NCBI GenBank assembly: GCA_965230895.1
Contig: OZ246394.1
Location: forward strand, 29,723 to 93,722
DNA length: 64,000 bases
Direction of reading: 5' to 3'
From: an uncultured Gammaproteobacteria bacterium
Lineage (GTDB): Bacteria; Patescibacteriota; Microgenomatia; Levybacterales; UBA12049
Of the stretch, positions 12,001 through 18,000 are shown in pieces. Position 1 is the first letter of the stretch. Each line of letters starts with the position of its first letter. The position numbers are program-made.

Positions 12001-15000
12001 GTATCAGCTGAAAATATCCAAGTAGATAATGCCGAGCTAGCAAGAAAAATTGATACAGAACAAATTCGATTCACAAACACGCGTGGTTTCCGCGTCCCTT
12101 TGCAACATCCTGCACTAACTGCACTTGGGTATGAATATGTTGATTTCCGTAAAGATCCAAACCTTCTTCGTACGATGAATGCAACAATTCACGTAGACGG
12201 AGTTGACGTCACTGTAAAGCTTGATCAAGATTTCCGAATCGATCTTGAAGGTAAACACGCTGATATATCTACTATTGGACCTTCTGTACAAAATGTCTTC
12301 CTCTCTATTTTGTATCCAGCATTGTGTGCAGTCCATGCAAAAGATGAATCAGGAGAGGCAGTAGAAATTAATAAAATTGTAGCTTCAAGAGTGGGATATA
12401 TTGGTTTTGTCCGTGAAGGATATAACTTCTCAGCAGATCAAGCTGGATATCTTTTGCGCGATGAAGGAAAAGATCTAGCCACAATTTCTGAACAAAGAAA
12501 AGTGAACGGAGAGACGAGGAACTCTACGTATACAAGACCGAAAGAATCTGATGATCCGTCGCTTCCACCAGTGAAGATTTTCATACCATTGCCTGATGCT
12601 ACCTTCCCTATGCCTGAAGTCTCAACAAGTTCATTAACGATCATTGCACCACAGCCAGAGCAAAGACCTGTTAAGCAAGGACATCCATTAGGATTGACCG
12701 ATCTTGAAGAATATGAGCTTCAGACAAATCCTTATAGAGGATTTCAAGGAGCTTTACATGAGATAGATATGGAACTATCTTATATTTCTAAGGATCGTGC
12801 ACGGTTACTAAGGGAACGTGAAATAGCTCAACGTGAAGGCAGATCTGATGCAGGCGTTACAAAGAAATTGCAGGAGCTTTTTGACGATGAGAAGAGTTTG
12901 CGTGGATCGGTAACAAGCTTTGAAAAAGCGCTTCGTGAGGAATTTGATACAACGCCTCAGGCACGAACGATGAAGTTCCGAGATCGTCAGAGGTTGTCAG
13001 TACATGAGTTATTAGATTTGCTGGCAGCGCAGCATGATGAAGAGCAAGCGTAAAACAAGAGTAGACTTATAGTTCAGATTGTATTATATAACTAGATTCG
13101 CTATAATACCGATTGCTATGAGACCAATCGAGCATGGGCCAGGAAACGTTGGTGGAGAAGGGCGTGGATCTTTCACCAATGCAACGGCCGAGACACAACC
13201 AATGCGCCCTCACAGAGTAGTTTCTCTCCAAACGAGAGCAGAATCAGGTGGAAGAATTGTAGACACACCTCTGGTACAGAGAAGAAGAGAAGAAACTGCT
13301 TTACTCGTTCCATCTGAACAAATACTCCAAGGATTAAGTATCTCTAATTCAGTGGATCGTATAGCATTGCGACCATGGGATACAGCATATGGACATGCTA
13401 CATCTGAAAATGCAACTGATACGAGAGCTTCATTGCGACAAATTCCTGATTATACAGATCATGTTGCACAAGTTGTTGATGATCAGCGGGCAAGAGCTTC
13501 AGAACTTGGTGAGACGCCCGTAAATAGAGATCTTGCTATCACGGTCTTAGCTACAAATCATCCTGATGCGCCTGCATTGGACGCTTTCTCCAAGCAAGCG
13601 CGTTCGCTTGCAGATGCAGATATTTCCGATCGAGATGTTGAAATAATTCTGGGGGCAATGCGAGAAGAAGTAGGTGCAATTACTATCCCAGTCGCAGAGC
13701 AACGTGCTGAAAATCGGAAACGAGCTGAAGTCGTTGGCAATACCTCTGTACCGGATTTACCAACAGATATTCCAAAAGATTTGGCTGATGCATTTGGTAT
13801 TGATCCTCGGACAAAAGTAGACCCACGATATTTGGATATGCTTGAAGAGGCGCTCGATAGTATGCGTGATCCTAATGTTCCAGAAGAGCAAGTTCGTGTG
13901 GACTTGCAAGTCCCAACATATGGAGAATATCTTGATGAAGAAATCGCTGAAGGTGGGGATGCTGGTGTTGTAGCGCTTGTTCCCGAAGCTGAAGAGTTGG
14001 ATCGGATTGGGGAAGGTTTTGCTGCCTTTGCCGGATTGGATAACCCACGATCTGCATCTGCGATAGGTGTGGCAGAGCAATTACACTTACGTGCCATTCG
14101 GATAGCGCATGGTATGGATGCAGAACGAGATGCGAGAAGAGCATTAGATGCATCTAAAGGTGAAGTTGATACTGCGGCAACAATTAACCCTAATAACCTT
14201 GCCGAATCTTCTCACGTATCGCATGCACCTCGTACAATCCCTGTGCACTTTGGTGGTGGCTACAGAGATCAAGGCATACCAACGCTTGATGAACTGAAGC
14301 AAATGAGAGAAAAAGGAATTATCCCTCCATCCGCAAATGAAGGAACCGTTTTCCTGGACAGAGCCAATCTAGGACGAAGAGAAAGAGTCATGGCTCAAGA
14401 GCCAGAATTGATCCGTGATGGAAGCCCTCAATCACGTCCTGTGAGAAGTATCTATGGTACAAGTGCGTTGAGAGGTCAAGAACGAAGAAGTAGAGTGATA
14501 AAGCGACTTGACTCCGAAAATTAACCTCAGATTCTTTAAAAGTAAGGCCTATAATCATATTGACTTATAACATTGACTCAGGTATAGTGCAGCAAGATTC
14601 TGCACCACGTGCTTTTGCTGGGTCAGGTGAAGGTCCTGTTCCTGCGCGACTGAAAGTTCGAGCTTTAACGGTAACACCCACAACAGAAAGATCTACAAGA
14701 CACATTGTTTCTCCAGCAAAATCTGGAGAGGGGAGAGAACCGTCTCGAACATCACATCCAGAACAAGCTACTGAAAAACCTTCACCAATTCCGAATAACA
14801 GCAAAGGTGCCCCAAAAGAACCAACAGCCGTCTATGTAAAACCTGAATCAGATGGTGCTGTTCCAAAAGATACTAGTGCAGCTCCAAAAAAAGGTATCTC
14901 TCAAGAGGAACTGCTTACTGCATTTGAGGCGCATCGGAAAGAGTTATTTGGCACAGCGCTTCGAGTAACTGGTAACTGGCAGGATGCTGAGGATCTTATG

Positions 15001-18000
15001 CAAGAAACATTCGTTAATGCATCACTCGCGGCTGATAATTATGCACACGGGAATATAGGCGGCTGGTTCCACAGAATATGTGTTAACCGTGGGTTGGATA
15101 TGCATCGAAAAAACGGTCGGAATCCCGTAGAAATGCCAGATGATGGAGCTCTGCCAGAACCCTTAACGATTAATGAACGTTCGTTGGGTGACCCGGAAGG
15201 ACATATGGAAAAAATGGAAGTAGCTGCAGAAGTTAAAGGACTTTTAGCGCAAGTTCAGCCAGAATTTGCAGATCTTGTATTAATGGCTGATGGATACGAT
15301 TTGACTTATGAGCAAATTGCTGCAATTAAGGGTAGACCCATCGGTACAATTAAATCAGGAATTCATAGGGGAAGAGCGAGACTAAGAAGTCTTAAGCGGG
15401 ATCAAGCTACAGAATAATTATTCCTTTTTATCTGAATTACGACCCCAACCTAATACTCTAAATTTTGACCTTTGAGGCCTTTCTGGAAGTGCTCGAACAG
15501 GAGGACGTTCTCTGACAATAGTTGCTTGAGCGGTTTGCGTTGTTGTACGAGCTCTAAAAGGAACGTCTTTATGCGCTATCTTCCCTTGAACTAATGTAAC
15601 AGATTCAGGGGCAACATGCATGAGCGCATCAGTTGATACTGTATGGCGTGCTTCATATGTTGTGGTTTCATCTGCGCTATCCGTTACTGTTGCGCCATCT
15701 TTTCCACGTACAGAATTACTTCCTCCGGAATGTGTACTTCTACTTGTCACAGCTCTCTGCCAATGCTTTCCAATGCTATCAGCGATAACTTCTGCATCTG
15801 GTCCATTTAATCCACCCAAACTTCCGGTCACTGCTCGGTCAGAACCTACCATAGCTTTTGTTGTATCATTTACTCCTCCAAATACAAATAATGTTCTTGC
15901 ACCTCGAGCTAAATTTTGCATTTGGGTATGTTCTAAGGTTTGTGCGTCTGAGTGTTCTACACCACTTATAACAACTTCATCCGGTTTCGGCTCATTACGT
16001 TCCTGATCCCAAGTCTGTTCTTCTGAACTGAGCAAATCTATATGAGCTGCCAGTAATCTACGCTTTGCAGGTAAGAATAAGCCTTCTGTAACGCCGTAAT
16101 TAAAGAATGTCGCTTCTTCACCGTCATTGAATCGTACGGGTTGTGAAAGATTATCTCCTCGTAAAAGTGCTTCCATATGTATATGAATTGGTCCTAGAAC
16201 TTCTTGCGCAGTTTTGACACTATTTTCACCTTTAAACAATCCCCGCATCTTATTCTCTGTTTGCACCGTAATTGGAAATTTTGGTTCTTTTCTTTCTGCG
16301 TTAAGTATTTCTGATATACCATTATACGCACCACCGAGAAGTGGTGTTTCCGGTTCTTTTTCAGCTAGCGTTTCAAGTACTCTAGTAAGATGAATAATTC
16401 TTGTTGTTGTCAATTCAGTATCTTCTCTTTCTGTGGGAGGCATAGAATCGACTACTAATTTTGCAGCTCTTGTATATTTTTCTTCATCTGGTCCGGACCT
16501 CTGTGCGTCCACGAGACGAGTCGGTGAAATATTCCTCCAATGGAGTGTCCCAACGCCTTGTTTTATAGCGTGATGTGTCAGATCATCTGTCGTTCGTTGT
16601 CCTGTAAGATCTGCTGTCCATACAAATTTCCTTTCAGCAACACTTGGGTAGGTTGCATATGAAATGGCGGTTGCTTGGTCTACTGGATCGGTTCCAATGA
16701 GGTGGACAATGTTAGCATCTTTAACTCCGTCATAAAAATGTCGTGGGGGAGTTGTAGGGAGAGAACGTACTCGAGTACGGACTGGAGCAGGCCCATCCGT
16801 GACAGTCCGAAATGTGCCTATATCACCTCTTCTATAATGTTCTAATCCTCCCATATTTCCTGTTTCACGTGGATGTGCCATAGTTTATCCTTTCATAAAG
16901 ATGTTCATTATATACAACAAACTTTATTTTTGCCAGTGAGCCTTAAAGATATCCATCTTCACCCCAGCCACGACTTAATGGTTGATCTGCCTGGCGTGGG
17001 TTTTCTACAATAACTTGCTCTTCTTGGGTTTTGAGTGCTGCTGTAACGCCTCCAGCGACTGCGGCTGTGATTCTTTCCATATCTATTTGCTCTGTATGAG
17101 CCCCTCCACCTGGACGTTCACGATCTCGTCTTCGATCTCTTCTTGCTACTTGTTGTTCCACATGAGCAATGACTTCATTATAAATTGTTGATGATGTGTT
17201 TTGGGTTAGTATTAATTCTCTAAGAAAATCAGCGTACTCATTTAGCCATGTATTTTCTGTTTCATTTTTATCGATTGCTTCAGTGAGGTTTGATCCAGTA
17301 CTTGTCTGTCCTATTCCTCGGTCCAGGATGAACTTTCCTGAACGCGGATTCTTGGCGAGGAAAATCATTTGTGTTGTGGGTATAGCATAATGAACATAGC
17401 TTAACTGTTCATCTACGGTATCACCATAAAGCTCTCCTCCTTGAAGCATAGCTTTGAGTTTTCCGTCACTTTCAGGATGTCTTCCGATCTTTTTCTGATC
17501 GATTCCTTGTTCATCTGCGAGTGCTAAAAAGCCTGTGAGCTCCGCTTTCACCGGGAACATCCAGTAATCTGGAAGAGTGTATTTAGAACCAGTTAAAGGT
17601 GGGTGTTGAACTTCATCATCTAGTGCATTGTGTACTTTTGCTTCTATATGGCTTATGTAGTCTTCTACTGGGATATCAGGTCGTAATACCTTTTGTGTTC
17701 GTGCACGAATTGTGCGTTCTGCAGCCTGGCGTACCAAAAAATTTCTTTCGGCTGGATCTCTATCTCTAAGATGCTCAAAGTAGTTTTTACCTTCTTCTCT
17801 AAGTTTATCGTAATTAATTCTCACCGGATCAAGCCCCAATAAAGTTGTCGCAGTTATTGTGTCAGTGAGAGCGAGTAGTTTACCCCCTTCAAGTGTTCCA
17901 TCAAGTACTCTACGAAGCTCTACCTTTTCCTCATCTATGAAGCGACGTCCTTCTGACGCATCTACTATGAATTTACTTCCTGGTAGTAACACATCGGCTT

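Follow-up and report, generated by a model that had tools for sequence, protein, structure and literature searches.

We analysed a 64,000-nucleotide stretch of contig OZ246394.1 (the window) and found that the gene at 14560-15417 on its plus strand encodes an extracytoplasmic function (ECF) sigma factor which begins with the same leader peptide as the 17 other products of the 29 kb island in which the gene lies. The leader is, on the evidence of its codons, under selection as a peptide and not as DNA. The explanation we favour, to which we assign a probability of roughly 0.4, is that it is a targeting motif which directs all of the island products to a single receptor, with export or delivery as the probable outcome. 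An earlier sequence-only reading of this DNA had claimed that an ECF sigma factor was fused to the leader of the island, and this was borne out using a hidden Markov model (HMM) built from the other 17 leaders: the N-terminus of the sigma factor matched with a score of 21.8 bits (E = 8e-6), next after the 17 training sequences.

The sigma factor is encoded by the only long open reading frame (ORF) at these coordinates. Four independent assemblies carry an identical copy of the 285-residue ORF, and the public protein collection lists a 285-residue protein encoded on a 1.61-Mb contig. The product belongs to the ECF (group 4) sigma-70 family and displays all of the defining features that were tested. 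Pfam detects region 2 (Sigma70_r2, PF04542) at residues 122–187 (3e-13; 49.7 bits against a cut-off of 24) and region 4 at residues 228–276, where both Sigma70_r4_2 (PF08281; residues 228–275, 30.8 against 25.7) and PF04545 (25.6 against 24.1) exceed their gathering cut-offs, so that both of the regions recognised in the sequence-only reading were recovered. There is no match to PF04539 or PF00140 in Pfam, and hence no region 1.1 and no sigma-3 domain. An AlphaFold2 model, for which 44 homologues served as input, places a short disordered linker of ~35 residues (193–218) at the junction of sigma-2 and sigma-4. The family-invariant residues are retained in both domains, which are intact, and by these sequence features the ECF sigma factor is functional-looking.

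Classification against ECF models, which the sequence-only reading had proposed as a check, gave a clear answer at the level of the superfamily (TIGR02937, 54.3 bits against a cut-off of 42.9). Among the specific NCBIfam models, those for actinobacterial SigE (PRK09647, NF007229; 110.6 bits) and SigH (TIGR02947; 80 bits) ranked top, although the equivalog cut-offs of 265 and 251.55, respectively, were missed by a wide margin; the BldN-family model TIGR02952 was absent among the 25 best NCBIfam matches listed. The top matches among solved structures were Mycobacterium tuberculosis SigE (PDB 9m9d_F, 5e-24) and SigH (PDB 5zx2_F, 8e-24). The nearest database proteins, which are of high-GC-type composition and themselves score best on the SigH/SigE models, are 36–40% identical over the sigma domains only. 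Judged from these profile scores, the protein is of the SigE/SigH-like branch, yet outside the SigE and SigH equivalogs. SigE and SigH are envelope and oxidative stress sigma factors of Actinobacteria. The nearest ECF relatives (P0003-P0115) have an extension of 25–50 residues that is preceded by a conserved N-terminal motif peculiar to them, MVFRRRSP...; the RR..SP of this motif is loosely like the RRIVSP part of the island leader, which may be coincidence.

The leader follows the pattern M-x-x-N-x-[ED]-[ST]-[FG]-x-G, then [RG]-[ST]-F, then [EG]-G-x-P-P-x-R-x-[RK]-[IV]-V-S-[PL]. When leave-one-out leader models were scored against 1069 six-frame segments of the window, 13 of the 18 leaders were recovered at E <0.05; the leaders of the island proteins p988, p487, p447 and p341 and of the island ATPase were weak on their own. 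When the window was translated in six frames and searched with a profile of all 18, no further leader emerged, and the best score after the 18 was 8 bits. The distal half-motif recurs 1–3 times per protein. Within their first 100 residues, the 18 island proteins contain 33 overlapping matches (~21 sites) to its core, a basic residue followed by [IV][VIR]S[PL], compared with one match in their other 7318 residues and two in 10,532 residues of flanking proteins, so that the half-motif is enriched ~130-fold near the N-terminus. Extra copies are also present in p988, p601, p931, p253, the ATPase and the second tagged sigma factor, sig457. The claim that the extension of the ECF sigma factor holds the leader twice stands in the form of the N-terminal copy (21.8 bits) and a partial copy, TRHIVSPAK.

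The conserved serine of the leaders is specified by both TCN and AGY codons, and the conserved arginine by both CGN and AGR codons. Moreover, the fraction of identical leader residues encoded by the same codon is 0.405, compared with 0.372 expected from codon usage. It is because the codon families switch and the same-codon fraction is close to expectation that we take selection to act on the peptide. A repeated DNA element or an RNA signal was ruled out on the grounds that synonymous codons are randomised and that Ser and Arg change codon families. The same observations bear on the idea that the leader is a functionless passenger, namely a 5' cassette of promoter, start codon and first ~40 codons which has been copied in front of genes by recombination. 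The position of every leader at the extreme 5' end and directly behind an extended -10 box would agree with such copying, as would the modularity of the leader and the near-identical promoter sequence across the last four island genes. However, the copies are saturated at synonymous sites while their amino acids are preserved, Ser and Arg among them despite a change of codon family, which indicates purifying selection on the peptide. Furthermore, both the promoter sequences and the promoter-to-ATG spacing differ among most genes, and we regard a passenger as improbable.

None of the leaders contains a hydrophobic core. The maximum Kyte-Doolittle mean for 11 residues within the first 70 is ≤1.02 in 18/18 proteins and 0.52 in the ECF sigma factor, and the RR pairs that are frequent in the leaders have no h-region after them. 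Because a hydrophobic stretch is absent from all 18 leaders, a Sec, Tat or lipoprotein signal was ruled out, which agrees with the original impression that the tag fits poorly with a simple export signal.

The extension had been put at about 115 residues, and the model is in accord with this: residues 1–110 have no secondary structure and a predicted local distance difference test (pLDDT) score of ~47–54, and the first sigma-2 helix begins at residue 115. The sequence-only reading had recognised that the fusion would fall if the true start codon lay downstream of the leader. Upstream of codon 147, which lies inside region 2, the frame offers a canonical start (ATG, GTG or TTG) at two places only, codon 1 (TTG, 14560) and codon 10 (GTG, 14587). 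Because there is no canonical start between codons 10 and 147, the extension must be translated; and because a start at codon 147 falls inside region 2, the leader core (residues 17–36) is obligatory in a functional sigma factor. A downstream start codon was rejected on the same basis, and an untagged form made from a canonical codon is impossible. Nor do the two in-frame starts provide two isoforms of the sigma-R/SigH type (ECF12s1), as only the long form can be made. It is very improbable, then, that the extension is an untranslated annotation artefact with the real start further downstream. Such an artefact might be suspected from the TTG start being only 4 nt past the -10 box and from a competing consensus promoter match, TTGACT(14560)-17-TATAGT(14588), from which transcription would begin only downstream of the two candidate start codons. 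Transcription from this match would yield no functional protein. Besides the lack of an internal start, the frame stays open, the peptide matches a family under protein-level selection, and the N-terminus, (M)TYNIDSG, is like the family start M-x-x-N-x-E-[ST]-G.

Past the leader, the island proteins are unrelated to one another except for the paralogue pair p394/p433, and 15 tagged proteins have no detectable family in the libraries against which each was scanned (Pfam, NCBIfam, PHROGs, PADLOC and PDB sequences). The tag had also been ascribed to toxin-like and membrane proteins. This description was not upheld in the window: Pfam assigns none of the island proteins to a toxin family, those scanned against NCBIfam, PADLOC and PHROGs gave no toxin match either, and membrane-related features are restricted to p253 and p447. 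The former (27992-28753, plus strand) contains a lipoprotein-signal-like segment, KVKAATVAAGAAISLAAC (AAISLAAC; ~28322-28372), ~100 residues behind the leader, and the latter has one moderately hydrophobic stretch. The ATPase matches DUF87 in Pfam, mad8 in PADLOC (3e-12) and, weakly, TraD and VirB4, and is an orphan among 5.8 billion proteins. The nearest matches to sig457 are Gaiellaceae RpoD proteins, at 28–29% identity, and neither sig457 nor the ATPase nor the ECF sigma factor has close homologues in the public protein collection. The island proteins are rich in Arg, Pro and Gly, with an Arg/Lys ratio of 1.8 compared to 0.67 in the flanks, and contain five-fold less Cys than flanking proteins (0.11% versus 0.56%, p = 3e-8). 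In monoderms, exported proteins are typically poor in Cys, as are disordered proteins.

The prolyl-tRNA synthetase (ProRS) encoded nearby is 66–94% identical to those of Saccharibacteria (TM7) genomes, and on the basis of this marker the organism is a Saccharibacterium. Cultured members of the Saccharibacteria are epibionts, and the placement lends support to the epibiont idea put forward in the sequence-only reading. In the closest genome (L005), the ProRS is 94% identical, the flanking genes are the same and a block of large orphan genes occupies the same site. One gene of that block is homologous to an island gene, its product p997 (16306-19299) being 34% identical to p988. The L005 protein has no leader and begins where that of p988 ends (~54 residues), and it is because of this starting point that we regard the leader, from the comparison of the two genomes, as a modular addition. 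With 34% identity in the cargo and 94% in the adjacent ProRS, the island region is, by the same comparison, evolving very fast, which fits host-interaction genes.

The leader is absent from all 80 Saccharibacteria loci fetched, including that of L005, and there is no sigma homologue with the extension among 5.8 billion proteins, so that the same fusion, which the sequence-only reading had hoped to see in related genomes, was not recovered. An exhaustive search of 1.84 billion representative proteins with the leader HMM returned 13 proteins of the window, five repetitive false positives and one genuine extra. The latter (P0137; L085 1046-1273) is a 75-residue ORF, MSKETGSSFNESDEGGHGSFRGEAGVPQRPNRIVSPD..., on a 2.7-kb contig of 43.8% GC from an unrelated sample (SRR31724217), and may be a truncated gene. 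Because 13 of the 18 members passed the search threshold and nothing else encoded by their genome reached it, the tag appears confined to the island. Nothing related was found in IMG/VR viral contigs, and there were no relatives of p988 in JGI metagenome contigs.

From this body of observations we infer the function of the leader and the existence of one reader protein which gives all island products the same fate. A single dedicated receptor would recognise the tag, and in an epibiotic Saccharibacterium the fate of the tagged products would most likely be Sec-independent export or contact-dependent delivery, by analogy with the N-terminal markers of polymorphic effectors or the disordered leaders of payloads of contractile injection systems. 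For the ECF sigma factor, the tag would take the place of the missing anti-sigma factor, in that removal of the sigma factor from the cytoplasm of the epibiont would set its activity. After delivery it might act on the RNA polymerase of the host; alternatively, it might work as an export-coupled regulator in the style of FlgM. ECF sigma factors from distant phyla can reportedly work with foreign core RNA polymerase (Rhodius et al. 2013), and the lack of both an anti-sigma factor and an autoregulatory ECF promoter also counts in favour of this explanation. The unrelated orphan cargo, the disordered and non-hydrophobic N-terminal leader and the multivalent half-motif fit an export or docking motif, and the Cys depletion and fast divergence point more to exported or host-facing proteins.

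Several points weigh against export or delivery. Two sigma factors and an ATPase of 1152 residues are unusual, cytoplasmic-type cargo. The internal position of the signal-like segment in p253 is unusual too, and the tag would then remain in the cytoplasm. None of the island proteins has a clear membrane-spanning channel, and no genes for a cognate secretion apparatus are recognisable in the window, where the sole linked candidate is the orphan ATPase, itself tagged. Since the tag is missing from the 80 Saccharibacteria loci, it cannot be a general signal of the conserved type IV secretion system or type IV pilus machinery of Patescibacteria. Finally, the roles documented for N-terminal extensions in the closest ECF families are regulatory and do not involve export (PMC7826278).

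These regulatory precedents lead to the next most probable reading, which we hold to be possible if somewhat unlikely: the leader would be a pro-sequence, degron or sequestration handle acting inside the epibiont and holding the products in an unstable, inactive or sequestered state until host contact or some other signal triggered processing, and the sigma factor would be a pro-sigma. The documented functions of ECF N-terminal extensions are all of this sort (PMC7826278). In BldN (ECF121), proteolysis removes a pro-sequence; SigC (ECF36s4), which lacks an anti-sigma factor, is autoinhibited by its extension; and ClpP degrades the long isoform of sigma-R/SigH (ECF12s1), in which the N-terminal extension is an instability element (all PMC7826278). 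In BldN the extension lies directly before region 2 and controls activity (PMC7826278), and the disordered extension of the tagged sigma factor is in the same position, directly before sigma-2. The membership of the tagged sigma factor in the SigE/SigH-like branch is also in favour of a pro-sequence or handle, which would in addition explain the missing anti-sigma factor and would sit well with the lack of channel proteins in the island, with the presence of the tag on both sigma factors and the ATPase, all of them cytoplasmic machines, and with the cytoplasmic location of the tag that is expected from the topology of p253. The repeated half-motifs suit a docking ligand. On the other hand, it is hard to explain why 15 unrelated orphan proteins should share one pro-sequence, there is no internal start that would give a short isoform as in sigma-R, and the Cys depletion and rapid divergence favour exported or host-facing proteins. 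Scans with Pfam and further libraries revealed no recognisable protease or adaptor gene in the island.

The sigma-2 and sigma-4 domains of the tagged sigma factor are most similar to those of the ZAS-regulated branch, which includes M. tuberculosis SigE and SigH and Streptomyces sigma-R, and SigE also has an N-terminal extension, of ~88 residues (the match begins at its residue 89). Unlike these proteins, the tagged sigma factor has no ZAS anti-sigma gene nearby and no GGAAC...GTT promoter was found in the window; its extension is unrelated in sequence, and its leader is common to 17 other island proteins. Bacillus pro-sigma-E and pro-sigma-K are made with an N-terminal pro-sequence before region 2 which controls their activity. 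In pro-sigmas, however, the pro-sequence is private to the sigma factor, whereas here the leader heads a whole island and no dedicated protease gene is visible. To our knowledge, few ECF sigma factors have N-terminal extensions, and each extension described belongs to its sigma factor alone.

Shared N-terminal modules on unrelated, fast-evolving and clustered proteins are known from MIX, FIX and RIX (type VI secretion), LXG (type VIIb secretion) and the payload leaders of Photorhabdus virulence cassettes (PVC), the last of which are disordered. The island leader resembles them in being modular and in its presence at the N-termini of 18 otherwise unrelated proteins. The N-terminal regions of the island proteins have no Pfam or NCBIfam match, and so do not belong to the MIX, FIX, RIX, LXG or PVC families. 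The cargo of the island also differs in including sigma factors and an ATPase, as does the organism in being a monoderm Patescibacterium, and systems of these types are not described for Patescibacteria in the literature searched. FlgM and ExsE are regulators with a disordered N-terminal export signal, and type III export of the anti-sigma factor or anti-activator sets expression. In the present case it is a sigma factor that would be exported, and a type III system would not be expected in the phylum concerned.

A more specific form of the delivery hypothesis is that the leader carries a set of island proteins into the bacterial host, among them the ECF sigma factor, the second, group-3-like sigma factor and the ATPase, and that the sigma factors would there redirect the host RNA polymerase in a phage-like take-over. 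We think this unlikely. A related but distinct proposal is that the island derives from a mobile element, degraded or not recognised as such, for instance a phage or a particle-forming element, in which the leader is a packaging signal and the sigma factors are packaged for take-over of the next host. Capsid-targeting sequences are known on internal proteins of phage T4 and serve as a model for such packaging. Both sigma factors match phage sigma families (phrog_1740, 2e-18; phrog_351, 5e-23), the island contains a HerA/FtsK-type ATPase, its GC content is higher and its Arg/Lys ratio unlike that of the flanks, and all of its genes are orphans. Nevertheless, there was no sign of a capsid, portal, terminase, integrase, tRNA or att repeat, there are no relatives in IMG/VR viral contigs, and the tag is on every product, structural proteins included, which is unlike known packaging signals. 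The variability of the sister genome at the same chromosomal site suggests instead an old chromosomal hypervariable region. On balance packaging seems slightly more doubtful than a passenger leader.

A prophage or integrative element was rejected as a candidate in its own right: the island and window contain no tRNA genes, att-like repeats or phage structural families, no integrase match was found among the proteins scanned, and IMG/VR holds no relatives. We rank the readings with export or delivery first, followed by the pro-sequence or degron, the passenger, packaging and, last, the annotation artefact.

The sequence-only reading had found no adjacent anti-sigma gene and a convergent next gene, and neither statement needs revision: no anti-sigma gene is recognisable, as the upstream neighbour p468 and the convergent p487 have no Pfam domain, no HxxxCxxC zinc motif and no transmembrane segment, and p487 (15418-16881, minus strand) has 0 nt between its stop codon and that of the sigma gene. 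The two stops stand back to back (15415-15420, TAA then TTA) with no spacer and no terminator-like site, and the two transcripts would have to overlap or collide. Elsewhere in the window is an untagged ECF sigma factor of 201 residues (48968-49573, minus strand), 20% identical to the tagged one. A 141-residue ORF just downstream of it has a membrane-embedded look by eye and no Pfam domain. Together the two genes (48434-49573, minus strand) would form the usual sigma/anti-sigma layout, in contrast to the tagged sigma factor.

Extended -10 boxes of the TGTGnTAtAAT type lie 5–13 nt before most island starts (for example at 10066-10086, 25018-25037 and 37510-37532) and also occur in L005 (~20490-20520); there is no Shine-Dalgarno sequence at these island genes. 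Because the -10 box is so close to the start codon and a Shine-Dalgarno sequence is lacking, the arrangement suggests that island mRNAs are leaderless or have very short leaders. The last three island genes (34615, 36121 and 37533) have the upstream string CTTATAGTTTGTG in common. To judge from their sequence, the -10 boxes of the island genes are of the housekeeping type. ECF-type promoters upstream of island genes, which the sequence-only reading had suggested searching for, did not materialise: the strict SigE/SigH-type pattern GGAAC-N15-18-CGTT has 0 matches in the window, compared with 1.1 expected, and a relaxed pattern has four compared with 5.4 expected, none of them at a promoter position.

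Saccharibacteria and other Patescibacteria manipulate their bacterial hosts and feed on them, but the literature searched describes neither a repertoire of effectors nor a signal for effector targeting in these organisms, and no description of the leader motif or of secreted sigma factors of Patescibacteria was found. The island offers 18 candidate substrates with one tractable handle of ~40 residues. If the leader serves for export, a sigma factor would be a cargo without precedent. Should it instead be a control handle, the island would represent a regulon at the post-translational level, with two sigma factors and 16 other proteins under the control of one peptide, and a new mode of ECF sigma regulation without an anti-sigma factor.

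Table 1. Coordinates of the tagged sigma factor gene, its parts and the main features of the island, in positions of the window.
Feature	Coordinates	Strand	Details and basis
Island of 18 consecutive leader-bearing genes, 16 plus / 2 minus strand	10087..38717	.	95.7% coding; GC 0.432 vs 0.398 in flanks
p988, residues 1–54 = leader	10087..13053	+	From residue ~55–57 aligns to leaderless 997-residue protein of sister genome L005
TATAAT, -10-like box 4 nt before TTG start	14550..14555	+	Layout as in other island genes
Tagged ECF sigma factor ORF, complete	14560..15417	+	285 residues, TTG start, TAA stop
Alternative in-frame GTG start, codon 10	14587..14589	+	Only other canonical start before codon 147
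Leader core RAFAGSGEGPVPARLKVRAL, residues 17–36 (whole leader, residues 1–36: 14560-14667)	14608..14667	+	Alignments; leave-one-out HMM 21.8 bits, E 8e-6
Second copy of distal half-motif, TRHIVSPAK, residues 46–54	14695..14721	+	Motif scan
Disordered linker, residues 55–114, Pro/Ser/Thr/Ala/Lys-rich	14722..14901	+	Composition; pLDDT ~46–60, no secondary structure
Sigma-2 domain, regions 2.1–2.4, helices at residues 115–184	14902..15120	+	PF04542; pLDDT >90; aligns to M. tuberculosis SigE/SigH structures
Sigma-4 domain, helices at residues 223–284	15226..15414	+	PF08281, PF04545; pLDDT 82–96
p487, convergent tagged neighbour	15418..16881	-	No domain matches; abuts sigma stop codon
Tagged P-loop ATPase, HerA/FtsK/VirB4 superfamily	16943..20401	-	1152 residues from MSNHETG
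Second tagged sigma factor (sig457), SigB/F/G-like	36121..37494	+	457 residues; regions 2–4 at residues 186–388; extra C-terminal helix-turn-helix

The limits of the ATPase gene call for a brief comment. The mechanical ORF (16943-20815, minus strand) extends ~130 codons upstream of the real start and overlaps the divergent p447 (20474-21817, plus strand); this upstream part is rich in Trp, Arg and Ser and looks non-coding. An ATG at 20425 that is preceded by a Shine-Dalgarno sequence would put eight residues before the family-type N-terminus of the ATPase. The ATPase and p447 genes are divergent, with an intergenic region of ~70 nt between them.

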